From contig JBFMFX010000017.1 of NCBI GenBank assembly GCA_040752005.1, positions 10,871 to 74,870 of the forward strand: a stretch of 64,000 nucleotides of DNA. The letters are read 5' to 3'. The position numbers were made by a program, and so were the translations under genes. Every line of letters starts with the position of its first letter. The first letter of the stretch is position 1. The notes under the pieces were generated by a model. The model ran no database searches, was not told where the DNA came from, and was given only the letters and a program-made list of their open reading frames with translations. The DNA is from Pseudomonadota bacterium. GTDB taxonomy: Bacteria; Pseudomonadota; Gammaproteobacteria; Burkholderiales; SG8-39. This document shows, one piece after another, positions 9,232-64,000 of the stretch.

Positions 9232-9294
9232 GGTGCGGGGTGGCGCGAGGCGGCGAAGGGGCGAATTCTACTCGACCCCCGGCGCGCGCCCGGT

Positions 9295-10895: not shown

Positions 10896-10901
10896 GGCGC
10901 G

Positions 10902-10907
10902 ATTCTA
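10902..10907 (-). promoter_or_regulatory. -10-like TAGAAT 6 nt upstream of the xdhC ATG; the hexamer includes the kinase TAG stop
   Basis: Minus strand reads TAGAAT-cgcgcc-ATG, read directly. Confidence 0.3.
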
Positions 10908-12269: not shown

Positions 12270-12270
12270 G

Positions 12271-12945: not shown

Positions 12946-12951
12946 GCGCCG

Positions 12952-12957
12952 ATGATA
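12952..12957 (-). promoter_or_regulatory. -10-like TATCAT 6 nt upstream of the response-regulator GTG
   Basis: Minus strand reads TATCAT-cggcgc-GTG. Confidence 0.25.
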
Positions 12958-13076
12958 CCGCCACGTGGCGCTTGCCGATCCCGCACGCCGGCGCGCCACC
13001 ATGCCGCACGACGGGCGGTTCATCTGCCGCGCGCGCGCACGCCTGCGATCGCACCTTGGCCAGGCCGCGAAGCGCC

Positions 13077-13103
13077 AAAAAAAAAGCCCGCGCGAACGCG
13101 GGC
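13077..13103 (-). terminator. Rho-independent terminator downstream of czcA
   Basis: Read on the minus strand, the stem GCCCGCG-(ttcg)-CGCGGGC is followed by a U9 tract. On the plus strand this is A9 at 13077-13085 plus the hairpin at 13086-13103. Confidence 0.7.
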
Positions 13104-13247
13104 TCGGCAGGCGCCGGCCGGGCGGAGGAAGGAACCCGGCCAGCCCCTGCAGGGGGCCGGTCGGAAACGGCCAGGCGAGACGCAGTCTGCGCGCGCATCC
13201 TTGCAGCGCACTTGCGCGTGACTTGCGCGCGGCTGACAGCGCCTGAC

Positions 13248-16200: not shown

Positions 16201-16340
16201 ACCTGCGTGTCGGTGACGTCGGGGAACGCCTCGACTGGCAGCCGATTGAACGCCGCGATGCCCGCGCCGACGAACACGACCACGCCCAGCACGATGAACA
16301 GCGGCTGGTAGAGGGCAAAGGCGACGACGCGCCGGATCAC
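13248..16340 (-). CDS. czcA: Heavy-metal-efflux (HME) RND inner-membrane pump, CzcA/CusA family
   Basis: 1030 aa. Contains FNRLPVEAFPDVTDTQVTV and the HME-type TM4 motif MDFGIIVDGAVIVVEN. Confidence 0.93.
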   Translation of the reverse strand: MIRRVVAFALYQPLFIVLGVVVFVGAGIAAFNRLPVEAFPDVTDTQVTVISLYPGRAAEEVEKQVTIPLEVALSGLPGAVRMFVHTQFGLSFLTITFDDGVNGYFARQQVVERLREVELPPGVDSQLAPFSTAIGEIYRYRLRGEGLGPRELRTLQDWVVQRSLKQVPGVADVTSLGGLIKQYEVRPDPARMRDYRVTLAQLAQAIERGNRNAGGSYVEQGRQQYLIRGIGLFQGPEDIANVVVTERGGTPILVRDIARVAVGAVPRQGVAGEDDEDDVVTGVVLMRRGENPSEVLGRVRERVAALNAGGLPAGVRIEPIYDRTWLIGRTLTTVFTNLLEGALLVSAVLWLFLGNLRAAAIVALTMPLALLATFLGLTWIGIPANLLSLGAMDFGIIVDGAVIVVENVFRKLSEASHGHKVLAESRRKQIILDAAVEVGRPTLFSMLIIIAAHIPIFTLTRHEGRIFAPMAYSVVSALAGALVLSLTLVPLLCAVTLRRNLPERENVLVRAAGRAYEPALRWALAHRRAVLGLALAALAGSLALVPRLGTEFLPELNEGALWVNVTLPTSVSVSEAQEMVARIRAAIRKFPEVRKVNSRVGRPEDGTDPKLINMAEFLVDLKPETEWTRGVDKAGLLREMEAEIVKLPGVVPTFSQPIRDNVLESISQIDGQIVIKVFGEDLERLRELALGVLRQVQEVPGVARAFVDRLGELPQIQVRVDRARAARYGLNVADIQDVIETALGGKQVTQIWEGEQRFGVAVRLEEAERTLTGMQELLVATPNGAYVPLSEVASLRTVGGMMNIARENGRRVLAVGVFIRGRDMGSVVSDMQAKVRRNVPLPEGYAITWSGEFENQERAMARLAVIVPISILIIFLLLFDAFKSFRNSLLIVANIPFSAIGGILALWLTGIYLSVSAAIGFIALFGQAVLNGVVMVALFNELRHRGAAPEEAAIQGARTRLRTVLMTALLASLGLLPMALSTGIGAETQKPLAVVVIGGLASATLLVLFVLPVLYVMMAGWRGRRRAPAG

Positions 16341-16341
16341 C

Positions 16342-17475
16342 TCAGTCCTTCGCCGCGAGCAGGCGCTCGAGGAGCAGGTTGCCGTCGACCACCACGCGCT
16401 CGTGCAAGGCCACGCCCTCCAGCACGACTTGATGCGCGTCTATCGTCGGTCCGAGGCGCACTCGCCGTCGTTCGAAGCGGCCGTCGCCTCGCTCGACGAA
16501 CACGTAGTGCTGCTCGCCGCGCAGGTACACCGCACGCGCCGGAACCAGCAACCCTCCGGCCGCCGGCACGCGCAGCTCGGCGGTGACGAACATTTCCGCC
16601 TTGGCGCGCCGCTCCCGGTTCTCGACCGCGCCGCGCACCTTGACCGTGCGCGTCTGCGGATCCACGAAATCGGCGATGGCCGTGATCCGCCCGGCGAGGG
16701 TCCGGTCGCCGAGGAGCGTCGCGCGCAGCTGCACCTCGGCGCCGACCCGGACGGCGCCGACATCGGCTTCGGCGATGTCGAGCAAAAACCACAGCCGTCC
16801 CGGGTCCGAGATCACGAACAGGCCCTTTTCCGGCTGTGCGTCGGCGCGCAGCTCCTGCCCCGGGTTGAGATTGCGCTCGACCACCACGCCGGCGATCGGA
16901 GCGGCGAGTGCAAAGCGCTGATCCACCGTCGCGGCCGCGGCGCCGTACAGGCGCAGGCGCGCTACCTGGCGCTCGCGCTCGGCGACGGCACGGGCGGCCT
17001 CCGTGCGCGCCGCCAGCAGGTCCTTCGCCGGCGCGACGCCCGCCGCGTGCAGCTCCTCGATGCGCGCAAGGTTCGTGCGCGCGAGTTCCTCGTCCACTTT
17101 CGCCTTGCGCGCCTCGGCCTGCGCCGCGCCCAGCTCGGGCGAGGCGATCACGGCAAGCGTCTGTCCGGCGCGCACCGCGTCGCCCGCGCGTACCGCGACC
17201 GCGACGACCCGCCCGCCGAGCGGGCTGAACACGCGCACGGTGCGGTCCTCGTCCCATACCAGACGCCCGGGAAAGCGCAGCACCGACTCGCGCCACGGCT
17301 CGATTGCCGCGACCGCGAGCGACGCGATCTGGGGGCTCTCCGGTGCGAAGACGATCGTCTGGCCTTCGACGCGCGGCTGCGGCGCAGACGTTTGCGGCGC
17401 CGAGTCGCCGCAGGCCGCCGGACCGAGCGCGGCGAGCGCCGCCCAGAGCACCGCAAGCGCGCGCGCCGGATTCAT
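16342..17475 (-). CDS. czcB: RND efflux periplasmic adaptor (membrane fusion protein)
   Basis: Lipobox-like N-terminus (LGPAACG), coiled-coil hairpin and beta-barrel regions. The start overlaps the upstream OMF stop (ATGA). Confidence 0.88.
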   Translation of the reverse strand: MNPARALAVLWAALAALGPAACGDSAPQTSAPQPRVEGQTIVFAPESPQIASLAVAAIEPWRESVLRFPGRLVWDEDRTVRVFSPLGGRVVAVAVRAGDAVRAGQTLAVIASPELGAAQAEARKAKVDEELARTNLARIEELHAAGVAPAKDLLAARTEAARAVAERERQVARLRLYGAAAATVDQRFALAAPIAGVVVERNLNPGQELRADAQPEKGLFVISDPGRLWFLLDIAEADVGAVRVGAEVQLRATLLGDRTLAGRITAIADFVDPQTRTVKVRGAVENRERRAKAEMFVTAELRVPAAGGLLVPARAVYLRGEQHYVFVERGDGRFERRRVRLGPTIDAHQVVLEGVALHERVVVDGNLLLERLLAAKD

Positions 17476-18731
17476 CGCCGTTCCTCCAGCGTCTGGACCG
17501 TGGCGCTCGCCGCGCGCCAGGCGGCGAGCGCCTTCGCGTAGTCGGCGCGCGCGGCGAGCGCCTCCAGGCGGACCGCGCGCAGCGTACGGCGCGCATCGAG
17601 CACCTCGAGCACCGAAACCGCGCCGCGCCGGAACGCGAACTCGGCGGCCTGCGCGGCTCGCTCGGCCGCACCGAGGAGCGCCGTGTCGTAGCGCTCCAGG
17701 CGTTCGCCGGCCGAGGCGAGCTCGGCGGCGGCGCGGCCGATGTCGTTGTGCGCCACCGCCTGCGCCTTCTCGAGGGCATCGAGCGCGGCGTAGCGTTCGA
17801 CCTCGGCGCGCTGAATGTCGCCGGAGAAGTCGTAGCCGGTGAAAAGCGGAAAAGAGATGCCGAAGCCGACCGAGTAGGAAGACGGCGCCGGAAACCGGTA
17901 CAGCTGCGCGCCCACCGTGATATCCCGCGTCTGCAGGCTGCGCGCGAGATCCCGCAGTTTCTCGGCGGCGGCAAGGCGCGCCCGGGCAGCGGCCACGTCA
18001 GGCCGAGACTCGATCGCGCGCTCGAGCGTGGCCCGCTCGGGCGGCACACGCGCCGGCCAGTCGTCGGCGGCGCGCAGCTCGCCGGCCGAGCGCTCCTCGC
18101 CGATCAGGTACGCGAGCGCGAAGCGTGCCCGGTCGAGCTCGGCGCGGGCGGCGCGCACCTCGTTGCGCGCCCGCTCGTGATCCACCTGCACCTTGGCGAC
18201 ATCGGCCTCGGCCAGATCGCCGGCCTTGAGCCGTGCTTGCGCCGCGGCGAGCGTCTGCCCGAAGAGCTGCGCGAGGTCCTCCAGCAGAAAGAGCTTGTCC
18301 TGGGCCTGCTTGAGCTCGTAATAGGCGACACGAAGTTGCGCAAGCTGCACGCGCAGCATCTCCAGCGACTCGCTGCGCGCGGCGCGTTCGAGCTCCTCGG
18401 CCGCCTGCATGCGCAGCTCGCGCTTGTTGCCGCGCTCGAGCGGCTGGTCAATGCGCAGCGTCGCGTCCAGCCTCTGGTCGCGCAGCGGTCCCGGTCCGAT
18501 CGCATTCGGCGCCACCGACACCCCGGAGGTGGCGAGCGACACCGTCGGGTTCGGCCGCGCGGCGGCGATCAGGCGCTGCGCCCCGGCCGCCTCGACCGCG
18601 CGGCGCGCGGCTGCCAGCTCGCGATTGCGCTCGAGCAGCAGCCGCTCGGCCTCGGCGAGGGTCAGATCGCGCGCGGGCGATGCGCTGGCGGCGGCAGTGG
18701 CGAGAAAAAAAACAAGGCAGCGCGCCTTCAT
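17472..18731 (-). CDS. czcC: TolC-family outer-membrane efflux protein
   Basis: The start is trimmed to [20 protein letters not shown], which is a signal peptide. Two OEP repeats follow. Confidence 0.85.
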
Positions 18732-18808
18732 CGGGGCGCCGAAGGCTACCGGCGCCGGTTGTCGCGCGCCTTGCGGCAAGCTTTCGGCATGCTGAAGCGC
18801 CGCGGCGT

Positions 18809-18852
18809 TTGCGCGGCGCAACATTGCCGGAGCGATGCCGCTTGGCTAGGAT
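18809..18852 (+). promoter_or_regulatory. Candidate coxSLM promoter: 13-bp palindrome TTGCGCgGCGCAA abutting TTGCCG-17 nt-TAGGAT
   Basis: Palindrome at 18809-18821, -35-like at 18824-18829, -10-like at 18847-18852, and coxS SD GAGGAGG at about 18891. All read from the sequence; function is inferred. Confidence 0.3.
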
Positions 18853-24118: not shown

Positions 24119-24124
24119 CACCGG

Positions 24125-25453
24125 ATGAGCGCGGTTTCACTTCTGCGCCGCCTGCTCGGGCGCCCGCGATCCGGCATCGCGCCACGCACGCGCCAGCTGG
24201 TGCAACTGTGCCAGGCGCTGCTGGGCGAGGGCGGCGAGGTCTCGGGCATGGCCACCGCCCGCCAGGCCTTGGCCGCCTACCACGCGCTCGATGAGCGGGA
24301 GCGCGAACAGTTCTTCGACGTCCTCAGCGAGGACTTTTCGCCTTCGCCGGAGGCCGTCGGCAAGGCGGCCGACGCCTACCGCGACGACCCGACGCCGCAC
24401 AACCTGATCCGGCTGCAGCAGGTGGTCGAGCCGCCGCGGCAGGAGCTTTTCCGGCGCCTGAACATGGCCGCCGGCGGCACCGCCGCGCTGGTGGAGATGC
24501 GCCGGCTGGTGCTGCGCGGGCTCGCCGCGCATCCGGCATGGAAGGTGATTGACGCCGATCTGCTGCACCTGTTCCGCTCCTGGTTCAACCGCGGCTTCCT
24601 GCGGCTCGAGCGCATCGACTGGCACACGCCGGCGATCGTGCTCGAGAAGCTGATCCGGTACGAAGCGGTGCATGCGATTCAGGGATGGCGCGACCTGCGG
24701 CGGCGGCTGGAGGCGGACCGGCGCTGCTTCGCGTTCTTTCACCCGCAGCTGCCGGAAGAGCCGATCATCTTCATCGAGGTGGCGCTCACGCGGGGGATGA
24801 GCGCACAGGTCCAGCCGCTGCTCGACGTCGGCGCGCCGGTCTTCCCGCCCGAGCAGGCCGACTGCGCCATGTTCTACTCCATCACCAACTGCCAGGAAGG
24901 CCTGCGCGGCATATCCTTCGGCAACCTGCTCATCAAGCAGGTCGTCGAAGACCTGAAGCGCGAGTTCCCGCACCTGAAGACGTTTGCGACCCTCTCGCCG
25001 ATTCCCGGCTTTCGCAAATGGCTCGCGGAGCCCGATACGCGGGTGCGGCTCGCCATGGGTCGAGACGGCGAAGCGCGCATCGCGCTGCTCGCGCAGATCC
25101 ACACGCCGGGCTGGCATCTGCACGAGGTGCCGGAATCGCTGCAGAAGATGCTGATGCGCCTGTGCGCCTGGTATCTGCTGCACGCCAAGCGCGGCACGGA
25201 ACCCTACGACGCGGTGGCGCGTTTCCACCTGGAGAACGGTGCGGCGCTGGAGCGCCTCAACTGGCTGAGCGACACCTCGGAGGCGGGGATGGCGCGCTCG
25301 GCCGGCCTGATGGTCAATTACGTCTACCGGCTGGAGGACGTGGAGCGCAATCACCAGCGCTATTTCGCCGCGCACGAGGTGGTCGCCTCGCGCGCTGTCG
25401 AGAAGCTGGCGCGCAAATGCGTGCTGGCGCTGGACAAGCCGGGCGAGGGCTGA
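24125..25453 (+). CDS. Malonyl-CoA decarboxylase family protein
   Basis: CFAFFHPQLPEEPIIFIEVALT...MFYSITNCQEGLRGISFGNLLIKQVVEDLKREFPHLKTFATLSPIPGFRKWL closely parallels the conserved MCD catalytic region. Confidence 0.88.
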   Translation: MSAVSLLRRLLGRPRSGIAPRTRQLVQLCQALLGEGGEVSGMATARQALAAYHALDEREREQFFDVLSEDFSPSPEAVGKAADAYRDDPTPHNLIRLQQVVEPPRQELFRRLNMAAGGTAALVEMRRLVLRGLAAHPAWKVIDADLLHLFRSWFNRGFLRLERIDWHTPAIVLEKLIRYEAVHAIQGWRDLRRRLEADRRCFAFFHPQLPEEPIIFIEVALTRGMSAQVQPLLDVGAPVFPPEQADCAMFYSITNCQEGLRGISFGNLLIKQVVEDLKREFPHLKTFATLSPIPGFRKWLAEPDTRVRLAMGRDGEARIALLAQIHTPGWHLHEVPESLQKMLMRLCAWYLLHAKRGTEPYDAVARFHLENGAALERLNWLSDTSEAGMARSAGLMVNYVYRLEDVERNHQRYFAAHEVVASRAVEKLARKCVLALDKPGEG

Positions 25454-32792: not shown

Positions 32793-34281
32793 CCATTTCC
32801 CGATAGCGGCCGATGTCGTAGTCCTCGCCGCGCTCGGCGAGGCCCTGCGGGATGTACACGCGCGTGCGCTCGCCTTCCCGCACCTCCAGGTTCTGCAGCG
32901 GCGCGTAGATCCCGGGCTTGAGCAGGATGCGCACCTCTGCCGCGCCGGCGTCGCGCATCAGCACACCCTCCTCGAGCGCGCCGCTCACCTCGAAGCGCCG
33001 CACCTCGGCCGAGCGCGCCAGCGTCTGGATTCCGACGCGCGCCTCGCGCGGGGTGGTCTTGTTCACCCGGCGCACGATCCCGAGCACCCAGTTCGTGCCA
33101 CCTTCTCCCTGAAGCGCGACGAGCGTTCCGACGCGCAGCCAGTCGCCCTTCAACTGCGGCACCACCGCACCGAAGCCCCCGGCGCTCACGTTCTCCACCA
33201 CCCAGCTCTCGGTGCCTTCGGCGCTGGAGCCGAGGCCGCCGGCAGCGCCCATCGCACCGAGTGCGCCCTCGTAGCCGTGCGCGACGAACACGCGCGATTT
33301 GACCGCGTGGCGCTGCGACTTGCGCTCCGGCGGCTGCGGCGACCACGCCCGCACCAGATGACGCAGCACGCCGAGCACCGATTCCGGGTCCACGCCCGTG
33401 ACGGCGGCGAGTTCCGAGGGCACCTGCCCGCGGGTGTACACGCGCTCCACGAGGGCCTCGGCTTCGGCGAGCGCGGCGCCGGCGCCGAACCAGCGTGCGG
33501 CCGGCGCCGCCTGCGCGCCACGGGCGCTGCGCTGCGGAGCCATCGGCCGGGAGAGGTCAATCCACCAGCCGAGCTCCGGGGCGGGCGCGGGCGCGATCGC
33601 GAAGCTCGGAGCGAAGTGTGCGATGAGGCGCTCGGCGAGGTCGGCCTCGGCCGGCAGCAGGCAATCGGGGCTCGCCGCGCTGAACATCGCACCCTTGAGA
33701 AATTCAAGCTGCGGCGAGGATTCGCCCGGCACGCCCGGATAGGCCGGCACGCGCGCCTGCGCGAGCTGGCGCGCCTCTGCAAAGGCGTACACACCGTTGA
33801 ACACCGCCCAGACGGCCGGATCAATCGGGCCATAGCGCAGGTGCATCCACTTGATCTGCTGCGCAAGGCTCCTCAGGGTCCGCACGAGGAGCGCCGGAAG
33901 CGAGGCGCGCGCCTGCTCGGCGCCCTTGGCGCCCTGCACGAACAGATCCACGGCTTTCGCCAGCGACAGGCCCGCCTGCCGGTAATAGCCGTGCACCGCG
34001 CTCCAGAGCCGGTTCTCCTGAAAGCGGGACGGCCGCTCCGCGGCAAAGTAGTCTCGGGCGAGTCTGCGCAGGCGCGGCTGCGCCGCCTCGTCTACCGCGA
34101 AGAGCGCCTGAATGCGGGCTTCGGGACGGAACTGTCCGGCGGCCGTCACCGACTCCAGCCAGTGCGTCAGCTCCTCCAGCGCCTTGAATGGGTCCTGAGC
34201 CGGAAGCTCGCCGAGGATCCGGCGCGCCTCCTTCGGATCGGCGAGGGGATGGTCGGGCTTGCCGCCAAACAGACGAAGCAT
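32779..34281 (-). CDS. PilZ-domain protein with a large uncharacterised N-terminal region
   Basis: The C-terminus carries RKSQR ... ENVSAGGFG, which fits RxxxR / (D/N)xSxxG. The start is set at MLRLFGGKP with GGAGG 5 nt upstream. Confidence 0.7.
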   Translation of the reverse strand: MLRLFGGKPDHPLADPKEARRILGELPAQDPFKALEELTHWLESVTAAGQFRPEARIQALFAVDEAAQPRLRRLARDYFAAERPSRFQENRLWSAVHGYYRQAGLSLAKAVDLFVQGAKGAEQARASLPALLVRTLRSLAQQIKWMHLRYGPIDPAVWAVFNGVYAFAEARQLAQARVPAYPGVPGESSPQLEFLKGAMFSAASPDCLLPAEADLAERLIAHFAPSFAIAPAPAPELGWWIDLSRPMAPQRSARGAQAAPAARWFGAGAALAEAEALVERVYTRGQVPSELAAVTGVDPESVLGVLRHLVRAWSPQPPERKSQRHAVKSRVFVAHGYEGALGAMGAAGGLGSSAEGTESWVVENVSAGGFGAVVPQLKGDWLRVGTLVALQGEGGTNWVLGIVRRVNKTTPREARVGIQTLARSAEVRRFEVSGALEEGVLMRDAGAAEVRILLKPGIYAPLQNLEVREGERTRVYIPQGLAERGEDYDIGRYREMVRES

Positions 34282-34313
34282 TGCCTCCGCTCCTCGTGGA
34301 GCCGCATCATGCA

Positions 34314-35627
34314 ATGTCCGGCAGGCTTTATCAATCCGTCCGGCCCCGGCACAATTCGGCGAGCGTCGTGGAGCCCCTGCGCTTTCTGATCGTGAGCGAT
34401 TCGCGCGACGAATGCGCCGCGCTCGCGCGCATGCTCGCGGCGCGCTGGCCGCAGGCCGCGATCGAGCACTGGGCGCCGATCGAGCGCGGCGGGTTGCCGG
34501 GCGATCGGCTCGCAGGCTGGAGCGCCATCCTGCTCGACGCGGGTCCGGGGCGGGAGGCGCCGCTCGCGTGGCTTTCGCGCCTGCGCCAGACCGCCGATCC
34601 CCCGCCGGTGCTCTTGCTCACCGCGCCCGGCAGCGAGATCGGGGCCGAGCAGGCGAGCCGAGCTGGGGTGGCGGACCTCCTCCACTGGGCAGGGCTCGAA
34701 CCGCGGCAGCTCGCGCGCGCCGTCGGGGACGCGCTTGCCGAGCGCGAGGCGCGGCGCGCCGAGCAGACGGGCGCCGACCCGCCGTGGCTTCGCACGACGC
34801 GCTGGGAACCGGCACGCATCGGCGCGCCGCTCGACGACGCTGCGCGCGAAGTGCCCGGCTACCGCCTGTTGCGCAAGATCGGCGAGGGCGGAATGGGGCA
34901 GGTGTATCTTGCCGAGCGCGTGCACGACGGCCTGCAATTGGTGCTCAAGCTGCTCGGGCCCGCGCTGCGCGGCGATCCCGTCTTCCTGCAGAGGTTCGTG
35001 CGCGAGTACAAACTGATCGCGGCAATCGCCGACGAGCATGTGGCGCGCATCTACGACCAGGGCTTCGCCGGCGTGCAGCCCTACCTCGCCATGGAGTTTC
35101 TTGCCGGCGGCACGCTCGCGGCGCGCATCCATGAGGGCATGACTTCGCTCGCGGCGCTGCGGCTCGCCGGCGGAATCGCGCGCGCGCTGGACGCGATCCA
35201 CCGGCACGGCATCGTGCATCGCGACCTCAAGCCCCAGAACATCATGTTCCGGGCCGGCGGCGCGCGTCCGGTGATCGTGGATTTCGGGCTGGCGCGCGAG
35301 CTCCACGGCGACTCGACGCTCACGCGGCACGGGCCGCTGCTCGCCACGCCGCGCTACATGAGCCCGGAGCAGTGCCTCGGCGAGCCGGTGGACGCGCGCT
35401 CCGACCTCTACAGCCTCGGCGTCATCTTCTACGAAATGCTGACCGGCCAGAAGCTGTTCGGGGACGCCTCCCCGGCCGACCTGATGCTCGCGCACGTGCG
35501 CGGCGAGGTGCCGCGGCTGCCGCCGCGCCTTGCCGGCTACCAGCCGGTGCTCGATCGCCTGCTCGCCAGGGATCCCGAGCGGCGGTTCCAGAGCGCACGC
35601 GAGCTTTTCGCTACCATCGCGATATGA
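34314..35627 (+). CDS. Hanks-type Ser/Thr protein kinase with N-terminal receiver-like domain
   Basis: [28 protein letters not shown] and SPE motifs are present. The N-terminus (LRFLIVSD...AILLDAG...VLLLTAPG) is REC-like. The start is uncertain: ATG 34314 or GTG at about 34369. Confidence 0.85.
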
Positions 35628-54425: not shown

Positions 54426-56099
<1,674 letters not shown>

Positions 56100-56191: not shown

Positions 56192-57793
56192 TCAGAAACC
56201 GGCGACGCAGCCGTCGCTGCGCGGGTCGGCCGCGCCCTGCAGGATGCCGTCGGGACCGCGCACCAGGGCACCGGCGTGACCCATGCGCTCGTCGAACTCG
56301 CCGAGCATCTCCACCTCATGGCCGCGCCGGCGCAGTTCCTCGACTACGTGCGGCGCAAAGCGCGCCTCCAGTTTGAGCGTCTCGGAGGCCGAGCCCCAGG
56401 TGCGCCCGAGCAGCCAGCGCGGCGCGGTGACCGCGTGCGCCAGTGGCCGGCCGAACACCGCATAGCGCGTAAAGACCGCCGCTTGCGTCTGCGGCTGGCC
56501 GTCGCCGCCCATCGTGCCGTACACCATCACGCGGCCGTCGCGCAGGCGTGCGAGCGCCGGATTGAGCGTATGAAACGGCCTCTTTCCCGGACGCAGGCGA
56601 TTGATGTGCGCCTCGTCGAGCGAGAAGCTCGCGCCGCGGTTCTGCCAGTTGACGTGCGTGCCCGGAAGCACCACGCCGGAACCGAATTCGTGATAAATGC
56701 TCTGGATGAAGCTCACCGCGAGGCCATTGCCGTCCATGACGCCCATCCAGATCGTGCCGCCCGGCTTCGAGCCTCCGGGCCACGGGCGCGCGCGGCGCAT
56801 GTCAATGCCGGCGGCGAGCCGGTCGAGGCGCTCGTGCTCCAGCAGCCGCTGCGGCTCGAGCGGCATGTCCGCGGGATCGGTGAGGTACGGATCGCGGATG
56901 CCGAGGAACGCCGCCTTGGTCGCCTCGACGGCGGCGTGCACGTGATCGGCCCCATCGCACGCCATGTGCGCGAGGCCAAGCCGGTCGAGGATGCCGAGAA
57001 TGGCGAGCGACACCGCCCCCTGCGTCGGCGCGGTCATGTTGTAGAGCGTGCCGGCCGTGTGCGCAAGCTCTAGCGGCCGCACTTCCCGCGCCTCGTAGGC
57101 CTGCAGATCCTCCAGCGCGAGCGGGCTGCCGAGGGCAGCGAGGTCCTTCGCCAAGGATCGAGCGACCTCGCCCCGGTAGAAGTCCGCCAGGCCCGCCTCG
57201 GCGAGCCGGCGCAGCGTCGCACCGAGCACCGGCTGCCTGAAGAGCGTGCCCTCGCGGGGCACCTCGCCCGCGGGCAGGAACCGGTCGGCAAATCCGGCCA
57301 CGGGTTCGAGCTCGGCACGCTTTGCGCGCGTGTTGGCTTCCTGGCTCGCGGTCACCGGCACGCCTGCTTCGGCGTAGTGGATCGCGTCCTCCAGCAGCCG
57401 CGCAAGCGGCAGGCGGGCGCCCCAGCGGCCACGCGCCAGCGAAAGCGCCAGATCCCATCCGGCCACCGCGCCGGCGACGGTGTTCGCCGCGAGCGGCCCG
57501 CGCGCCGGAATGCTGCTCATTGCCGAGTCGCGATAGAGCGCGACGGTCGCGGCCCGCGCCGCCGGGCCACAGGCATCAATCGCGATCGGAGATCGGTCCG
57601 GAGCGGCGATCAGCCAGAACGCATCCCCGCCGATGCCGTTCATGTGCGGATAGACGACGGACACCGTGGCGGCGGCCGCCACCATCGCCTCGATCGCATT
57701 GCCGCCCTCGCGCAGCACCGAGAGCGCCGACTGCGCGGCGAGCGCATGGGGGGCCACGGCGATGCCGCGGCAGGCGTACCGCGTGTGGATCAT
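56192..57793 (-). CDS. Gamma-glutamyltransferase-family protein without signal peptide
   Basis: GGNAIEAMVAAAATVSVVYPHMNGIGGDAF is present. The predicted autoprocessing Thr is in PGGTIWMGVMDGNG. The start is trimmed to MIHTRYA, with an ATGA overlap to the upstream hydrolase. Confidence 0.9.
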   Translation of the reverse strand: MIHTRYACRGIAVAPHALAAQSALSVLREGGNAIEAMVAAAATVSVVYPHMNGIGGDAFWLIAAPDRSPIAIDACGPAARAATVALYRDSAMSSIPARGPLAANTVAGAVAGWDLALSLARGRWGARLPLARLLEDAIHYAEAGVPVTASQEANTRAKRAELEPVAGFADRFLPAGEVPREGTLFRQPVLGATLRRLAEAGLADFYRGEVARSLAKDLAALGSPLALEDLQAYEAREVRPLELAHTAGTLYNMTAPTQGAVSLAILGILDRLGLAHMACDGADHVHAAVEATKAAFLGIRDPYLTDPADMPLEPQRLLEHERLDRLAAGIDMRRARPWPGGSKPGGTIWMGVMDGNGLAVSFIQSIYHEFGSGVVLPGTHVNWQNRGASFSLDEAHINRLRPGKRPFHTLNPALARLRDGRVMVYGTMGGDGQPQTQAAVFTRYAVFGRPLAHAVTAPRWLLGRTWGSASETLKLEARFAPHVVEELRRRGHEVEMLGEFDERMGHAGALVRGPDGILQGAADPRSDGCVAGF

Positions 57794-58758
57794 CGCTCGA
57801 TCCGGTTTTCCCGATTTGCCGCAAGCAGGCTGGTCGCGGTGCTCGGCAGCTGCAGCCGTTCGAGCAACCAAGGCCATCCGGCCGCGCCGGCTCTCCGACC
57901 GAAGAAGCCGAAGTGGCCGATCCTGCGCACGCCGAGGTCGGCGGGCCTGAGCACCACGTGCCGCGGTGCCAGCCGCGGGTAATACGCAAGCAGCCGGCGG
58001 GTACCGGCTGCGGTCGCAAACGCGTCGTCGCTGAACCGCAAGGCGAGCGCGGGACGCTCAAGCAGCGCGCAACGCTGCAGAAGGCGCTGCGTGCGCTCCG
58101 CGTCTTGCCCCGCGCTGCCGGGCCGCAGATCGCCGGTGCGGCGTGAGGCCCACTGCAGCGCCACGCCGGCGGGGATGTCGTCGCCCAGCCCCAGCCGGCG
58201 CGCGGGAAAGTAGCCCACGAGGCGCGTGACCGCCGGCATCAGTCCATGCCATAAGACGGCCATCGGAAGTCGGTAGAGCGGATGGTAATCCCCGAAGTAA
58301 CCGGTATGGGCGCCGACAAGGACCAGGCGCGACTGCTCGCCGGCGTTGTGTGCGCCGCCGAACAGCAGTGCGCCCACCGAATGGGCAATCCCGATCAGTT
58401 CCGCACCCGGGTACCGATCACGCAACCAGCCGATGGCCGCACTGCAGTCGTATTCCGCCCAGTCCTCGATCACGGAGCGAAATCCTTGCAGTGTCGGTGG
58501 CCGGGATGCGCCGATACCGCGGTAATCGTAGAGGAGAACGGGCATTCCCGCGCCGGCGAGGAAACGTGCAAAGCGCCTGTAGTAGTGCGCCGGTATCCCG
58601 GCGCCGCCATGCACCACGACCACCCGTTTCGCCTCTTTGCCAGCAGCCGGCACGTACAGGTGTCCGCCCAGCTCGTAGCCGTCCAGGGCCGAAAACCGAA
58701 TGGGCCGCTCGTCGGCGGCGCCGGGTCCATCGCCGAAATCCAGGTGTGAGGACTGCAT
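57790..58758 (-). CDS. Alpha/beta hydrolase
   Basis: VVVHGGAGIPAHYY and GIAHSVGA (GxSxG-type) are present. The start at ATG 58758 is uncertain because no SD was found. Confidence 0.8.
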   Translation of the reverse strand: MQSSHLDFGDGPGAADERPIRFSALDGYELGGHLYVPAAGKEAKRVVVVHGGAGIPAHYYRRFARFLAGAGMPVLLYDYRGIGASRPPTLQGFRSVIEDWAEYDCSAAIGWLRDRYPGAELIGIAHSVGALLFGGAHNAGEQSRLVLVGAHTGYFGDYHPLYRLPMAVLWHGLMPAVTRLVGYFPARRLGLGDDIPAGVALQWASRRTGDLRPGSAGQDAERTQRLLQRCALLERPALALRFSDDAFATAAGTRRLLAYYPRLAPRHVVLRPADLGVRRIGHFGFFGRRAGAAGWPWLLERLQLPSTATSLLAANRENRIER

Positions 58759-59033
58759 CGTGGAGCAAAGTCGCGGTATCGGGCCTGTCACGAGCCGGGG
58801 ACCTGGGTCCTGCCGGGCCGCATCGCGCGCTCGGGCCGCGCGCCGCCAGCCCTGATCATTTCCGCCGATCTCGTCGTGCGGATGATACAGGGGTCGGGTC
58901 GCCACCGTCGCCGGCGATCCGTCGTATTTGCGCCCGACACACGAGGGGCGTCTAATGCTGGCCGAAGGCGCCGGCTGGACCGGCGTTTCGGGATTCACGG
59001 ACCCCGGAAGGGGATTTTGGAGGAGAACGCATC

Positions 59034-59963
59034 ATGAGCAACTTGAACGACGTCGCGGGTCTGCGGCTGGCCTGCGGTACCTACCCCGAGGTGGAATACG
59101 AGTTTGAGCCGGCGATCGGCACCGTCTGGGGCTACATGCGGCAGCGAGGCACTCCCTGCTTCAATCTCGGGCTGCTGAAATCCATTCGGGAGTTCGGTAA
59201 CGCGCTCACGGCGAACGGCGGCACGGTCGAGTGCGGCGGGACCCGGTACAAGGTGAACTACTACGTCGCCGCCTCCCGGGTGCCGCGCGTGTTCAACCTG
59301 GGCGGGGATATCGCGCTGTTCCTGCTGCTGATCAAGTCGGGCGATCGCGACGCGCTGGCGCATTACGCGCACCTGTGCATAGATAACATCTACGCTCGGG
59401 TGCGGAACTATGGCTGCCCGGAGCTGACGACGATCTCTCTGGTGCAGGGCGAGGCGCTCGGCGGCGGGTTCGAAACCGCGCTCGCCTCCGACGTCATCGT
59501 CGCCGAGGAATCAGCGATGATGGGACTGCCGGAAATCCTGTTCAACCTGTTCCCCGGAATGGGAGCCTACAGCCTGCTCGCCCGCCGCGTCGGGCCGCGG
59601 GTCGCCGAGGAGCTGATCCTCTCGGGGCGCGTCCTGCCCGCTGCACGGCTTCACGAAATGGGCATCGTCGACGTGTTGGCGAAGGACGGCGAAGGCGAGG
59701 CCGCGGTCCGCAGCTGGATCGCGAAGAACGCGCGCCGGCGCATCGGCTTTCAGGCGGTGATGCAGGCGCGCAAACAGGTATTTCCGCTCACGCGCGCCGA
59801 ACTCGATGCCGTCGTCGAAACATGGCTCGACTGCGCCCTGCGCATCGAGGAGCGCGACCTGCGCATGATGGAGCGTCTCGTACGCGCGCAGCTGGAGCGC
59901 ATGGAGCGCGGCGCCTGGGGAGGTGTCGGCGGTGGAGCCGCGGCTGCTGCCGCCGCGGGCTAA
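59034..59963 (+). CDS. rpfF: DSF-family (cis-2-enoic acid) signal synthase, crotonase fold, RpfF homologue
   Basis: VFNLGGDIALF, LVQGEALGGGFETAL, MMGLPEILFNLFPGMGAYSLLARR and MERLVRAQ parallel RpfF. Both catalytic Glu positions are retained. SD GGAGGAG lies upstream. Confidence 0.88.
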   Translation: MSNLNDVAGLRLACGTYPEVEYEFEPAIGTVWGYMRQRGTPCFNLGLLKSIREFGNALTANGGTVECGGTRYKVNYYVAASRVPRVFNLGGDIALFLLLIKSGDRDALAHYAHLCIDNIYARVRNYGCPELTTISLVQGEALGGGFETALASDVIVAEESAMMGLPEILFNLFPGMGAYSLLARRVGPRVAEELILSGRVLPAARLHEMGIVDVLAKDGEGEAAVRSWIAKNARRRIGFQAVMQARKQVFPLTRAELDAVVETWLDCALRIEERDLRMMERLVRAQLERMERGAWGGVGGGAAAAAAAG

Positions 59964-62488
59964 CCCGCCGAGGTGCGGCGCTCCCGCAGATACTGCTCGA
60001 GCGCCGCACGCGTTGCGGCGAGCTCCTCGCGCAGCGATTTCAGCAGCGCCGGCGCCTGCAGCTTGAGCTCGGGGTCGGAAAGTCTGCCGATATCGCGGCA
60101 AAGGGCCGTCAGCCGCTCCGCGCCCATGCTCGCCGCAGAGCCCTTCATGGCATGCAGGTGGCTGCGGAATTCGGGCGCGTTGCGCGCCGCGAGCGCGGCC
60201 TCCAGCCTGCTCAACAAGGCCGCGTTGTCGGCGGTGAACACCCCGATCAGCTTGTCCATGAAAGCGGGCGAGGACCCGAGCTCCTCCAGGTCGCGCAGCG
60301 TCTGCGGATTGACCACCGGCACCGCCCCGGCCGGCTGCTCGGCGCGAACCGCCTGCGGCGGCTCGACCGCTGGCGCCCGCCGCGGCTGCGCTTGCCTGGG
60401 GGCGCACAGAGCTTGGATCTCCTCGAGCAGCCTCCCAGCCTCCACCGGCTTGCCGAGGAACGCGTCGGCCCCCGCTTCCAGGCTTTCCTGCCTCGCCTCG
60501 GGCGTGACGTCGGCAGAAAGCAGGATCACGGGCATGCGCGTCGCCGCAGTAAGACGGATCGCCTTGACGGTATCCGTGCCGCTCATGCCCGGCATGTTCC
60601 GGTCAATAATCGCGATGTCGTAGCGGCCCGCCTCGAGCGCATCGAGCGCGCGATCACCGTCGGCAACCAGCGTGGGCACGTGGCCGGCCCGCTCCAGGAT
60701 CCGGCCGAGCACCTCGCGGTTGGTCGGATTGTCGTCGGCAACAAGCACCTTCAGGCCGACGGCGCCCGGCGCGCGGCGCGCGTAGTCCTGCAGCCGCACC
60801 ACCCCCTCGCGCGCCTCCTCCCCGGCGCGGACCGCGTGCAGCACGTGGAAAAGCTGCCGTTTGTCCACAGGCAGTTCCAGCAGCGCACCGAACCCTGCCG
60901 CAAGCGCCTCCCCGCGCGGCACCACACCGTCACGCTGGACTGCGAGCACCAGCGCCGGGGCGGGCTCAGGTACCGCGCGCCGGAAGCGCTGCGCCGGCCG
61001 CAGGTCCTTGTCGTCGGTGTAGATCAGGACGCTGTGATAGGGCCGCGCCAGGCTGATCTCCGCCACGATCCGGCTGATCCCCTCTTCGACATCGGACACA
61101 GCGATCGGCGTCGCCCCCCATCCCTCGAGCGCCTGCTCCAGCGCTTGCCGGTGCTGCGCCGGAAAGCCGACCAGCATCACCCGCGCGCCGGCGAGCTCGC
61201 CCGTACCGGTCACCGCGCGCTCCGGCTGCTTCTCGAGCTCGATCTCGAACCAGAACGTGCTGCCCAGGCCCACCGCGCTCTCCAGCCCGATGCGTCCGCC
61301 CATCAGCTCGACCAGCTGCTTGGCGATCGTGGTGCCCAGACCGGTGCCCCCGAAGCGCCGGGTGGTGGACTGGTCAGCCTGCATGAAGCTCTCGAAGATG
61401 CGCTGCTGCACCTCCGGCGCGATGCCGATGCCTGTGTCGCGCACCGAGAACTTAAGCTGCACGCGGGAGTCGGTTTCCTGCTGCACGCTCACGTGAACGG
61501 TCACGCTCCCCCGCTCGGTGAACTTGACCGCGTTGGCCACGAGATTGATCAGCACCTGGCGCAGGTGGTGCGCGTCGCCGCGCACCGCCAGCGGCACCTC
61601 CGGCATGATCGAAACTACGAAGTCCACACCCTTCGCCGCCGCCTGCGTGGCAAGGATGCGGCACGTGCTGTTCACCAGTGCATGCAGGTCGAAGTCGCTG
61701 CGTTCCAGCGCCAGCTTGCCCGCCTCGATCTTGGAGAAATCGAGCACGTCGTCCACCAGGCCGAGCATCACCCGCGCCGACCCGCGCAGCGTCTGCAGCA
61801 TGTCAGCCTGCTCGCGGTTGAGCGGGGTATCGCGCAGCAGGTCCGCCATACCGATGATCGCGTTGAGCGGCGTCCTCATCTCGTGGCTCACCACCGAGAT
61901 GAAGCGGCGCTTGGCCTGATTGGCGGCCTCGGCGCGCTCCAGCGCGTTGGACATGCGGCGCACGAGCGTCAGCACGTACAGACTCAGGGCCGCGAACCCG
62001 ACCATCATCCCGATGCCCACGCTCACCCGCTCGCGCCAGTACTCGCTCAGGACCATCGCTGTCGCAAAGCCGAGCGTGCTCAGCCCCAAGGAGACGACGA
62101 GATAGCGCGCGCCGTAGCGAAAGCCGTTGCCGAAGGTGAACCACAAGTACACGAGAAACAGGGGAACGCCCTTTTCTCCGAAGTACGCGATGCACCAGCT
62201 CAGGGTGGCGGAATCGAGGACCGTACCGAGAATGCGCCGGCTGGGCGATGCCTGAGGAAACGCGAGAATCGCTCCCAGAATGAACGCCGACAGGACAAGA
62301 AAGGCGACCCAGACCAGAAAGTGCGGTTCCTGCAACTCCGCCGAGCGCCGTTCCAGCATTTCCGGAAGCAGGTAAAGACCGAGCAGCAACCCCACCACCA
62401 TCCGCACGATCGCCTGCTCGTGCTCGGTGTCCGGGCGCGCCGCGAGGCGCGCCTTGAGTGCCGCGACGAGCGTGCCCGGAGCGATCAT
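59960..62488 (-). CDS. rpfC: RpfC-type hybrid sensor kinase (TM input-HisKA-HATPase-pseudoREC-REC-HPt)
   Basis: The RpfC-like input has RLAARPDTEHEQAIVRMVV and WFTFGNGFRYG. Also present are the H-box SHEMRTPLNAI, REC IAIIDRNMPGMSG and HPt HLHAMKGSA. The start is trimmed to MIAPGTL. Confidence 0.88.
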   Translation of the reverse strand: MIAPGTLVAALKARLAARPDTEHEQAIVRMVVGLLLGLYLLPEMLERRSAELQEPHFLVWVAFLVLSAFILGAILAFPQASPSRRILGTVLDSATLSWCIAYFGEKGVPLFLVYLWFTFGNGFRYGARYLVVSLGLSTLGFATAMVLSEYWRERVSVGIGMMVGFAALSLYVLTLVRRMSNALERAEAANQAKRRFISVVSHEMRTPLNAIIGMADLLRDTPLNREQADMLQTLRGSARVMLGLVDDVLDFSKIEAGKLALERSDFDLHALVNSTCRILATQAAAKGVDFVVSIMPEVPLAVRGDAHHLRQVLINLVANAVKFTERGSVTVHVSVQQETDSRVQLKFSVRDTGIGIAPEVQQRIFESFMQADQSTTRRFGGTGLGTTIAKQLVELMGGRIGLESAVGLGSTFWFEIELEKQPERAVTGTGELAGARVMLVGFPAQHRQALEQALEGWGATPIAVSDVEEGISRIVAEISLARPYHSVLIYTDDKDLRPAQRFRRAVPEPAPALVLAVQRDGVVPRGEALAAGFGALLELPVDKRQLFHVLHAVRAGEEAREGVVRLQDYARRAPGAVGLKVLVADDNPTNREVLGRILERAGHVPTLVADGDRALDALEAGRYDIAIIDRNMPGMSGTDTVKAIRLTAATRMPVILLSADVTPEARQESLEAGADAFLGKPVEAGRLLEEIQALCAPRQAQPRRAPAVEPPQAVRAEQPAGAVPVVNPQTLRDLEELGSSPAFMDKLIGVFTADNAALLSRLEAALAARNAPEFRSHLHAMKGSAASMGAERLTALCRDIGRLSDPELKLQAPALLKSLREELAATRAALEQYLRERRTSAG

Positions 62489-63579
62489 CTGCCCGCCTCG
62501 GCCATGGTGTCCTGGAAGTCGCGCTGCACTTCCAGCACCTTGGCCTTCATCCCGAGAAACGCATCCACCATGCGCGGATCGAAGTGCTTGCCGCGCTGGG
62601 CGCGAAGGTACTCGAATGCGTCCTCCGGCCGCCACGCCTTCTTGTACGGGCGCCGGGAGGTGAGCGCGTCGTAGACATCGGCCACCGCGACGATGCGCGC
62701 GCAAAGCGGAATGTGGTCGCCGTCCAGCCCGCTCGGGTAGCCCTTGCCGTCGTAGCGCTCATGGTGCCCGAGCGCGATCAGCGCCCCCATGCGCACGTAC
62801 TTGGAAGCGCTGCCCTTGAGGATCTCGTGGCCGATCAGCGGATGGCGCTGCATGACGTTCCATTCCGGCTCGTCCAGCCGCCCCGGCTTGAGCAGGATGC
62901 CGTCGGGAATGCCGATCTTGCCGATGTCGTGCAGCGGCGCCGCCAGCTCGATCGTCTCGGCCTCGTCGCGCTCCAGACCGATGGCGTTGGCGATCAGGCG
63001 CGAGTACCGCGCCATGCGGATGAGGTGATAGCCCGTCTCCTCGTCGCGGAATTCGCCCGCGCGCGCAAGGCGCAGAAGCGTCTCCTTTTCGCGCTCGCGG
63101 ATCTCGCGCGTGGCCTCCTCCACCATGCCTTCGAGCAACTTGCGCTTGTCGTCGAGGGCGAGCTGCTGGCGGCGCAGCGTCAGCAGGTTGCGGCAGCGCG
63201 CCAGGCACTCGCGCGCATCCACCGGCTTGATGAGGAAGTCGGTGATGCCGGCATCGAGCGCCGCGTATCGCACCCCCTTGTCCTCCTGCGCAGTGACCAT
63301 CACCATCGGCACGTGTTCGTAGCCGGGGAGTGCGCGCAGCCGTCCGACCAGCTCGATGCCGTTCATGTCGGGCATGAGGTAGTCCACGAGCACGAGGTCG
63401 GCGACGTGGCGCGTCGCCCACACCACCGCGTCCACCGGACGGGCGAAGCCCTCGACGATGACGCGCTCGTCGAGGCTGCGCACCACCTGCTCGAGGATGG
63501 CGCGGCCGGTGGATTGATCGTCCACGACCATGACGGTGTTGCGGGTAGCGGGCAGCACCAGGAGCTGCGCCTTGGCCAT
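62485..63579 (-). CDS. rpfG: Response regulator with HD-GYP c-di-GMP phosphodiesterase domain (RpfG-type)
   Basis: The REC part has VMVVDD...LVLVDYLMPDMNG. The HD-GYP part has PLHDIGKIGIP...HHERYDGKGYP. The stop overlaps the rpfC ATG (ATGA). Confidence 0.9.
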   Translation of the reverse strand: MAKAQLLVLPATRNTVMVVDDQSTGRAILEQVVRSLDERVIVEGFARPVDAVVWATRHVADLVLVDYLMPDMNGIELVGRLRALPGYEHVPMVMVTAQEDKGVRYAALDAGITDFLIKPVDARECLARCRNLLTLRRQQLALDDKRKLLEGMVEEATREIREREKETLLRLARAGEFRDEETGYHLIRMARYSRLIANAIGLERDEAETIELAAPLHDIGKIGIPDGILLKPGRLDEPEWNVMQRHPLIGHEILKGSASKYVRMGALIALGHHERYDGKGYPSGLDGDHIPLCARIVAVADVYDALTSRRPYKKAWRPEDAFEYLRAQRGKHFDPRMVDAFLGMKAKVLEVQRDFQDTMAEAGR

Positions 63580-63723
63580 CGCTCTCTCCCAGCCGATTTT
63601 CGCGCGGCAACAGCCTACGCCGGGCCGGCGGTCAGTGTCCAGCCGAAAAGTTCCGCACCTGATAGAGCTGACAAAGGCTTACGGAACTGCGCCCGCGTTT
63701 CGATCAGGGTGCCGCCGGCCGGC

Positions 63724-64000
63724 CTAGGCACGCTCGGCGACTAGGACGACGTTCGACCCCCCAAAGCCGAACGAATTGGACATCACGGCCCGCAAGTCGC
63801 CGGCGCGTTCAGCTTCCCGGGCAACGTGGCGCACCGCACAAGCCGGATCGGGTTCGTCGAGGTGCGCCGTTGGCGGCAGAACGCCCTCGCAGAGCGGCAT
63901 CAGGGCGGCGGCGAGCTCGAGCGCTCCGGCCGCGCCGAGAAGATGACCATGCATGGACTTGGTAGAGCTGACCGGCACGCGCTCGCCAACCTCGCCAAGC
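63724..64000 (-). CDS. Beta-ketoacyl-ACP synthase (KAS I/II family), C-terminal part; N-terminus beyond the window end
   Basis: STKSMHGHLLGAAGALE...NSFGFGGSNVVLV is the KAS C-terminal signature. Confidence 0.85.
   Translation of the reverse strand, partial: LGEVGERVPVSSTKSMHGHLLGAAGALELAAALMPLCEGVLPPTAHLDEPDPACAVRHVAREAERAGDLRAVMSNSFGFGGSNVVLVAERA

Follow-up and report, generated by a model that had tools for sequence, protein, structure and literature searches.

To our knowledge, signalling through the diffusible signal factor (DSF) has been studied almost only in pathogens, namely Xanthomonas, Xylella, Stenotrophomonas and Burkholderia. The Rpf system of Xanthomonas campestris, with its synthase RpfF, sensor kinase RpfC and response regulator RpfG, served as the main point of comparison for a locus found in 64,000 nucleotides of contig JBFMFX010000017.1 (assembly GCA_040752005.1), a stretch hereafter called the window. 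Three adjacent chromosomal genes near its right end quite likely make up a quorum-sensing module of the DSF family, of the RpfF/RpfC/RpfG type, whose host is an uncultured betaproteobacterium close to Burkholderiales, as judged from gene order and homology. The gene layout, the homology, the catalytic, phosphorelay and sensor residues, and the vertical conservation of the locus within its clade were all observed directly.

Complete RpfF/RpfC/RpfG trios also occur in Thiobacillus, Methylobacillus, Methylophaga and Leptospirillum, which we liken to the window by their published descriptions (PMC4504480, PMC9040794, PMC8357829). Ryan et al. (2015, PMC4504480) listed rpfF-rpfG-rpfC clusters for Thiobacillus and Methylobacillus, and such clusters are reported for Methylobacillus flagellatus and Thiobacillus denitrificans (PMC9040794). 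A KEGG-based survey found RpfC-RpfG pairs in alpha- and betaproteobacteria and in Nitrospira (PMC8895600), and DSF-family compounds were detected in cultures of Leptospirillum, a non-xanthomonad with an rpfFCG cluster (Bellenberg et al. 2021, PMC8357829). Given these published non-xanthomonad clusters, an rpf cluster of the Xanthomonas type is nothing new in kind for a betaproteobacterium. The Leptospirillum cluster is unidirectional, whereas that of the window is convergent as in Xanthomonas, and the window lineage is uncultured. A literature search for reports on DSF in metagenomic Burkholderiales found none.

Other described systems share parts of this design. The Burkholderia DSF (BDSF) system of Burkholderia cenocepacia (BCAM0581/RpfR) has a synthase of the same protein family, NF006452, and its output is likewise tied to the turnover of cyclic di-GMP (c-di-GMP). 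Its receptor, however, is the cytoplasmic PAS-GGDEF-EAL protein RpfR, in place of the membrane hybrid kinase and HD-GYP regulator encoded here; no rpfR flanked rpfF in the window, where the neighbours are an alpha/beta hydrolase gene and rpfC. In Pseudomonas aeruginosa, an RpfC-type membrane input, that of PA1396, senses cis-2 fatty acids; PA1396 is described as an interspecies sensor (PMC6536496), and we liken it to the window protein by that description only.

The trio is laid out as follows, with lengths in amino acids (aa):
59034–59963, + strand: rpfF, 309 aa, a DSF-synthase-type crotonase with catalytic E147 and E167.
59960–62488, − strand: rpfC, 842 aa from the ATG at 62488, a hybrid sensor kinase.
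62485–63579, − strand: rpfG, 364 aa, with a receiver (D66) and an HD-GYP c-di-GMP phosphodiesterase domain.

The minus-strand pair rpfG-rpfC is convergent with rpfF. The four bases CTAA at 59960–59963 hold both the rpfF stop codon TAA (59961–59963) and the minus-strand rpfC stop codon TAG (59960–59962). At 62485–62488, TCAT reads ATGA on the minus strand, so that the start of rpfC is overlapped by the stop of rpfG. A longer TTG start for rpfC (62704) was rejected because a 220-nt overlap with rpfG would result; gene callers and homologues agree on the ATG at 62488. As a reference we took the Xanthomonas locus L083 (assembly GCA_020783675.1), whose RpfF is 96% identical to the crystal-structure sequence from X. 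campestris pv. campestris (Xcc). Its order is rpfB, rpfF (+), then rpfC, rpfH and rpfG (−), with the same convergence as in the window. The full xanthomonad cluster has rpfB upstream of rpfF and, in some species, rpfH between rpfG and rpfC, and both are missing here: tblastn with Xanthomonas RpfB gave no rpfB in the 64-kb window, and within the same 64 kb Xanthomonas RpfH matched the input domain of RpfC only, leaving no rpfH. The flanks also differ, being panC, GGT, queA and tgt here and acnA, lysS and prfB in Xanthomonas.

An earlier note on this DNA, made from its letters and open reading frames, had described the three genes as a Xanthomonas-style trio lacking rpfB and rpfH. The positions, strands and both overlaps that it gave are all present in the sequence, and Pfam returned these domains: ECH_1 for RpfF; HisKA, HATPase_c, Response_reg and Hpt for RpfC; Response_reg with HD_5/HD for RpfG. 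The motifs it quoted were also found (GGGFE at E147 and GLPE at E167 of RpfF; RPDTEHEQ at residues 18–25 and FGNGFRYG at residue 119 of RpfC), and they align with Xanthomonas RpfF and RpfC. The likeness to Xanthomonas itself was borne out by identities of 39%, 40% and 49% for RpfF, RpfC and RpfG and by a convergent layout as in L083, and our searches with RpfB and RpfH agree with the two absences. The note overlooked a pseudo-receiver in RpfC, a linked alpha/beta hydrolase, an adjacent pair of genes for an acyl carrier protein (ACP) and a ketosynthase (KAS), and the fact that the gene at the right end does not belong to the housekeeping fab operon.

RpfF scored 349 bits against the NCBIfam model NF006452 (cut-off 177) and thus belongs to this family; the same model gave 422 bits for Xanthomonas RpfF and 392 bits for B. 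cenocepacia BCAM0581. The four top matches of RpfF in the PDB were RpfF-type structures (7zq7, 6dgn, 5fus and 3m6m; 1e-51 to 1e-55), and generic crotonases matched from 1e-16 only. P. aeruginosa DspI (5wyb) is likewise a distant crotonase, at 1.5e-12 compared with 1e-55 for RpfF structures. Window residues E147 and E167 correspond to E141 and E161 of Xcc RpfF and were invariant in 84 of 84 sequences. The pocket residues of Xcc RpfF, namely G85, L136, G137, G138, M170, W258 and L276 (PMC9864630), correspond to G90, L142, G143, G144, M176, W264 and L282 in the window protein, and all are kept. Overall identity was 39% to the L083 protein, 41% to Xcc RpfF and 38% to BCAM0581. In a neighbour-joining tree, which is a midpoint-rooted distance tree free of support values and serves as a guide only, the RpfF sequences fell into three groups: BCAM0581, the Xanthomonadales, and a large environmental clade that holds the window RpfF. 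This last clade comprises alpha-, beta- and gammaproteobacterial metagenome-assembled genomes (MAGs) together with cultured Inquilinus, Gluconacetobacter, Arenibaculum, Agaricicola and Crenalkalicoccus. As a member of the DSF-synthase crotonase family, RpfF is predicted by homology to act as a dehydratase and thioesterase on 3-hydroxyacyl-ACP.

RpfC carries, in order, an N-terminal sensor, a multi-transmembrane input, HisKA, HATPase, a pseudo-receiver, a receiver and an HPt domain, encoded at the following positions:
61934–62488, − strand: input domain (residues 1–185), colinear with the Xanthomonas RpfC input.
62414–62437, − strand: sensor motif R18-P-D20-T21-E22-H-E-Q25, RPDTEHEQ compared with RADSEHAQ in Xanthomonas.
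61232–61915, − strand: kinase core, HisKA at residues 192–257 (phospho-His H202) and HATPase_c at residues 304–419, from Pfam.
60821–61183, − strand: pseudo-receiver, at about residues 436–556, from hhalign against the protein's own REC.
60005–60748, − strand: receiver (residues 581–691, D629) and HPt (residues 747–828, H779), from Pfam, with motifs DRNMPGM and HAMKGSA.

By BLASTP, RpfC was 40% identical to the L083 protein over residues 11–489 and 33% over REC-HPt, and its REC matched that of Xcc RpfC (3m6m_D) at 2e-26. Within the 22-residue sensor of Xcc RpfC, R15, D17, S18, E19 and Q22 are essential for DSF perception, and an S18T variant is active (Cai et al., PMC5391125). The window residues R18, D20, T21, E22 and Q25 match these five, and the motif was kept across 53 RpfC homologues. 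The membrane input is colinear with that of Xanthomonas from residue 11, with WFTFGNGFRYG in place of WVTIGNGLRYG; further stretches compare as LKARLAARPDTEHEQAIVR with LKRRLSGRADSEHAQNLIR and as LWFTFGNGFRYG with MWVTIGNGLRYG, window before Xanthomonas. A crude hydropathy scan showed four strongly hydrophobic segments, not exactly five helices, in a pattern parallel to Xanthomonas. The H-box SHEMRTP at residue 201 aligns with SHEFRTP, and the HisKA/HATPase/REC/HPt hybrid has H202, D629 and H779 aligned to Xanthomonas. The two proteins thus share the short sensor (R-x-D-S/T-E-H-x-Q), the multi-transmembrane input with its W.T.GNG.RYG motif, and the HisKA-HATPase-REC-HPt order. On this homology, RpfC is a putative DSF sensor whose REC could bind and restrain RpfF.

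The window RpfC is 116 aa longer than its Xanthomonas counterpart (842 and 726 aa), and the difference comes from the inserted pseudo-receiver. Pfam gave no match for the insert at residues 424–578, and hhalign aligned it with RpfC's own REC at a probability of 97% (E 3.7e-11). We read it as a pseudo-receiver because a Tyr replaces the phospho-acceptor Asp and the acidic DD pocket is lost. The same domain was present in the RpfC proteins of about 840 aa found in most non-xanthomonad relatives, and Xanthomonadales RpfC lacks it. The input domain family as a whole had 1978 cluster representatives at E<=1e-3, of which 1199 reached E<=1e-10; their lengths were mostly about 840 aa. As a separate observation, RpfC-input proteins of about 1010–1260 aa (P0362, P0373, P0374, P0378, P0394, P0396 and P0397) carry at least two tandem input domains and may represent an RpfH-like module fused to RpfC.

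These results also bear on whether the resemblance might exist at the level of domains only, with a generic enoyl-CoA hydratase standing beside an unrelated hybrid kinase and HD-GYP regulator. Pfam does see generic domains alone, as that explanation would have it, but the homology reaches the family-specific RpfC input and its sensor motif as well as the RpfF family NF006452, and some 35 orders of magnitude in E-value separate the RpfF structures from generic crotonases. RpfF stood apart from generic enoyl-CoA hydratases in its NF006452 score, its PDB E-values, the scoring of reference proteins and the neighbour-joining tree. We give this explanation almost no weight, and consider it refuted by the NF006452 scores, the PDB E-values, the reference scoring and the alignment of RpfC to Xanthomonas.

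RpfG was 49% identical to Xanthomonas RpfG (L083) over 349 aa, that is, over its full length, and has the same REC plus HD-GYP arrangement. Its HD-GYP half matched the active phosphodiesterase PmGH (4mcw) at 1.4e-60, with intact motifs HDIGK at residue 217 and HHERYDGKGYP at residue 272, and the receiver aspartate D66 was in place. A receiver joined to an intact HD-GYP domain is thus encoded together with rpfC through the ATGA overlap. By homology, RpfG is a predicted phosphorylation-controlled c-di-GMP phosphodiesterase. A different arrangement was seen in cultured alphaproteobacteria (L050, L058, L063, L068, L070 and L072; Gluconacetobacter, Inquilinus and Agaricicola), in which rpfF is convergent with a long rpfC. 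These six loci had no adjacent REC-HD-GYP gene, and only the receiver part of RpfG matched a protein of about 710–750 aa encoded a few kb away. Their output module may differ.

Signal chemistry, ligand binding, phosphotransfer and regulon can be proposed by analogy with the X. campestris system. E147 and E167 of RpfF would dehydrate 3-hydroxyacyl-ACP from fatty-acid synthesis to cis-2-enoyl-ACP, after which RpfF would cleave the thioester and release a diffusible cis-2-unsaturated fatty acid. This acid would be sensed by the N-terminal sensor of RpfC, which would autophosphorylate at H202 and pass the phosphate to D629 of the receiver, to H779 of the HPt domain and finally to D66 of RpfG. Phosphorylated RpfG would have its HD-GYP phosphodiesterase switched on and would lower c-di-GMP, with shifts in biofilm formation and motility.

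The same proteins could conceivably serve as a fatty-acid-sensing two-component system without autoinduction, in which RpfC-RpfG would respond to fatty acids of external or membrane origin and RpfF would work in lipid metabolism. RpfC-type inputs without an adjacent RpfF do occur elsewhere, PA1396 sensing foreign DSF being an example (PMC6536496), and the RpfF clade is known from sequence alone. Against this, rpfF was tightly linked to rpfC at almost all of the loci inspected in alpha-, beta- and gammaproteobacteria, the two stop codons often overlapping or nearly so, and no catalytic or pocket residue of the DSF synthases is missing from RpfF. We therefore regard sensing without signal synthesis as quite improbable, and favour a quorum-sensing module in which synthase and sensor act together.

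The DNA around the trio places it on a core chromosome, since the window also encodes dnaE, metG, purM, hda, pcnB, folK, panC and hrpA; scans with Rfam and for tRNAs found no rRNA or tRNA in the window that could have served as a taxonomic marker. Relatives of RpfF were sought in one genome per GTDB species, and 95 were found. The closest were two MAGs labelled Burkholderiales, at 86% identity, which share in the same order GGT (80%), PcnB (91%), PanC (87–88%), RpfC (83%) and RpfG (91–92%). Another 40 or so MAG species, with the label Betaproteobacteria, Burkholderiales or just Pseudomonadota, had an RpfF of 56–79% identity, and the order of the trio was conserved in about 40 betaproteobacterial MAG species. 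In about 35 MAG species the cluster shared one chromosomal position, downstream of pcnB and, where this was scored, of panC as well; the other flank was queA-tgt where checked. This shared site and order across the clade indicate that the cluster is ancestral there and was not recently transferred; by comparison of these genomes it looks vertically inherited.

Recent horizontal acquisition from Xanthomonadales, or a contig that is itself a mis-assigned xanthomonad, is accordingly highly improbable. The GC content of the 58–64 kb segment (0.67–0.70) is slightly under the window mean and the source MAG is labelled just 'Pseudomonadota bacterium', but equally low GC was found in other segments of the window. 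Identity to Xanthomonadales proteins was 39–49% only, RpfF falls outside the Xanthomonadales clade, and the cluster sits at one and the same site in the roughly 35 MAG species with Betaproteobacteria or Burkholderiales labels, whose flanking PcnB is 76–91% and PanC 68–88% identical. By synteny, the contig is nearest to MAGs with Burkholderiales or Betaproteobacteria labels. Its host is no xanthomonad but an uncultured betaproteobacterium of Burkholderiales type.

The earlier note had also pointed to a housekeeping context, and the eight genes named above were indeed found. It had further implied that such a cluster is rare in this setting, which did not hold: at least 40 betaproteobacterial MAGs at species level have this cluster, it is common among uncultured Betaproteobacteria of soil and water, homologues number in the thousands, and reviews list such clusters. 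Of 8000 candidates scored in a protein search, more than 7900 were RpfF homologues. The best 120 were 71–99% identical, mostly metagenomic, and carried the JGI label 'DSF synthase'. Related rpfF-rpfC pairs were present in many alpha- and gammaproteobacterial lineages.

Compared with Xanthomonas, then, the window has a betaproteobacterial host, an RpfF outside the Xanthomonadales clade, and, as accessory genes, a hydrolase and the ACP-KAS pair. The features on either side of the trio are:
57790–58758, − strand: alpha/beta hydrolase (Hydrolase_4 family), 322 aa, Pfam Hydrolase_4 and Abhydrolase_1, divergent from rpfF.
58759–59033, no strand: intergenic region between the divergent hydrolase gene and rpfF, with blocks conserved with two related species.
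63580–63723, − strand: intergenic region upstream of rpfG, with a conserved promoter-like block.
63724–64000, − strand: 3' part of a gene for a KAS-II-like ketosynthase, truncated where the window ends, from the gene calls of L001.

The hydrolase family is narrow, with 944 matches at E<=1e-5 among 8000 word-sharing candidates scored. The gene and rpfF diverge in the window and in two related species (L003 and L004). Many relatives have it as the last gene of an rpfG-rpfC-hydrolase operon, where it lies between rpfF and rpfC (for example, L089 7001–7912 and L091 7001–7909). Its Ser-Asp-His triad (S127, D244/D245 and H282) was invariant in 38 aligned sequences. An AF2 model had a pLDDT of 87, and the nearest folds found by Foldseek were monoacylglycerol lipases and RhlA, matches of a generic kind (TM about 0.55–0.6, 15–20% identity). 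NCBIfam, AF2 and Foldseek gave nothing beyond a lipase- or esterase-like function. The protein is probably an acyl or lipid ester hydrolase and a conserved companion of the cluster, as its sequence and placement suggest.

Alignment of the region between the hydrolase gene and rpfF with L003 and L004 showed the conserved blocks GTGCGnATGATACAnGGG, ATTTGCGC and GGCGTCTAATG and a GGAGGA ribosome-binding site; a strict consensus scan found no sigma-70 site in this region. Upstream of rpfG, TGGACA-N18-TAGGCT and flanking bases were kept in the window, L003 and L004, and this block was missed by the same type of strict scan. A 78-aa open reading frame without a Pfam match (55863–56099, −) always lies between panC and the rpf cluster, and in relatives it is directly upstream of rpfF (L089 9077–9313, L091 9031–9267).

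At the right end, the KAS scored 429 bits, short of the 493.75 that NCBIfam sets as the cut-off for the fabF equivalog. In L001, whose contig is identical to the window, it is preceded by a divergent stand-alone ACP of 81 aa that fell under every NCBIfam ACP cut-off and scored about 30 bits against Escherichia coli AcpP. The pair lies at 14691–16206 (−) in L001 and at 12664–14173 (−) in L004, where queA and tgt come next. A fab operon (fabF-acpP) was rejected as the identity of this right-hand neighbour on the NCBIfam cut-offs and the queA-tgt flank. The pair is confined to the lineage of the window, L003 and L004 (three species-level genomes). It may be an accessory of the cluster, and its membership is uncertain; because rpfG has its own conserved promoter-like block, the link of ACP-KAS to the signalling genes is only suggestive.

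Other accessory enzymes were found in relatives. A heme-oxygenase-like gene of family PF14518 (diiron-type, 'iron-containing redox enzyme') lies between rpfF and rpfC in 29 of them, five to six of which also have a cytochrome P450 gene beside it, and a betaproteobacterial MAG (L043) has a PlsC-like acyltransferase gene after rpfF and a FabB-like KAS gene after rpfC, both inside the cluster. The sole PDB relative of the PF14518 product was the TenA-like protein 3dde. Both the PF14518-type and the P450 genes were sought in the window and were absent. Coordinates in the relatives are:
8910–9581 of L007, − strand: PF14518 gene.
8938–9618 of L005, − strand: PF14518 gene, with 9692–11044 on the − strand.
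8904–9800 (+) and 9843–11111 (−) of L043: the two accessory genes of its cluster.

The PF14518 and P450 genes may be a sign that the signal is oxidatively tailored or turned over, and either the hydrolase or such oxidases might replace RpfB as a signal-turnover or tailoring step. From this follows a variant of the best explanation, with the same architecture, in which the signal would be no plain cis-2-enoic acid and the ACP-KAS pair would supply an unusual acyl-ACP precursor; we consider it rather unlikely. Equally doubtful is its second element, that the signal would be released, altered or degraded by the alpha/beta hydrolase or, in relatives, by the diiron-oxidase-like enzyme and P450. Such a signal would be a chemically novel addition to the DSF family. 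A divergent stand-alone ACP and KAS directly upstream of rpfG and outside a fab operon would suit an altered signal, as would a hydrolase that stays with the cluster through changes of gene order and keeps its catalytic triad, the PF14518 genes of the 29 relatives and the P450 of five to six, the FabB-like and PlsC-like genes inside the L043 cluster, and the separate clade formed by RpfF. On the other side, very little separates the sensor motif of RpfC and the pocket residues of RpfF from their Xanthomonas versions, and this speaks for a similar ligand and against a very different one. The ACP-KAS pair occurs in three species-level genomes only, its co-regulation with rpfG, which has its own promoter-like block, is no more than putative, and the fold match of the hydrolase is generic. 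More broadly, interchangeable lipid-tailoring genes might let different lineages of this clade produce and perceive DSF-family signals of distinct, undescribed structure, a tentative idea to which we assign a low likelihood.

Several observations weigh against reading the locus as a DSF quorum-sensing module of the Xanthomonas type. RpfF scored 215 bits on NF053515, the RpfF equivalog model, which has a cut-off of 550. On this model Xanthomonas RpfF passed with 586 bits, and the experimentally validated BCAM0581 failed with 185. Since BCAM0581 passes NF006452 alone and Xanthomonas RpfF passes both, we take NF006452 to describe the DSF-synthase family and NF053515 to be a model of the Xanthomonadales only; with BCAM0581 at 185 bits on this clade-specific model, the score means that the window RpfF is not a Xanthomonadales-type orthologue in the narrow sense. 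The third clade of the tree, apart from both characterised groups, is a further such point, and it implies that the chain length or modification of the product could differ. The extra pseudo-receiver in RpfC, the lack of an rpfB-type acyl-CoA ligase near rpfF, and the variable accessory enzymes of relatives, which hint at a chemically modified signal, are departures of the same kind. Consensus scans found no promoter or terminator between 58.6 and 64 kb, and both the host organism and the RpfF clade are known here from their DNA only.

Elsewhere in the window, a second two-component system adjoins an RND efflux pump at 10905–18845 (−):
10905–12410, − strand: QseC-like kinase with a 2CSK_N domain.
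About 12560–12950, − strand: receiver-containing gene.
13248–16439, − strand: AcrB of the RND pump.
17472–18845, − strand: outer-membrane factor of the RND pump.
Genes for malonyl-CoA decarboxylase and a eukaryote-type Ser/Thr protein kinase are also present (24119–25453, +, and 34188–35627, +), and neither is linked to the rpf cluster.

The gene content of such clusters, their mechanism and their distribution beyond the xanthomonads are already in the literature, so that the locus itself raises no fresh question, and the potential for discovery lies only in the variable accessory lipid enzymes. Natural variants of RpfC and RpfF, of the kind collected here, are usable for structure-function work. 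For the organisms themselves, the locus, together with the roughly 40 syntenic MAG species and the metagenomic homologues, presents the RpfF/RpfC/RpfG module as stable and apparently inherited vertically across a widespread clade of environmental, uncultured Betaproteobacteria, and it offers context for microbial ecology, for instance for c-di-GMP-controlled biofilm behaviour in soil and water communities.

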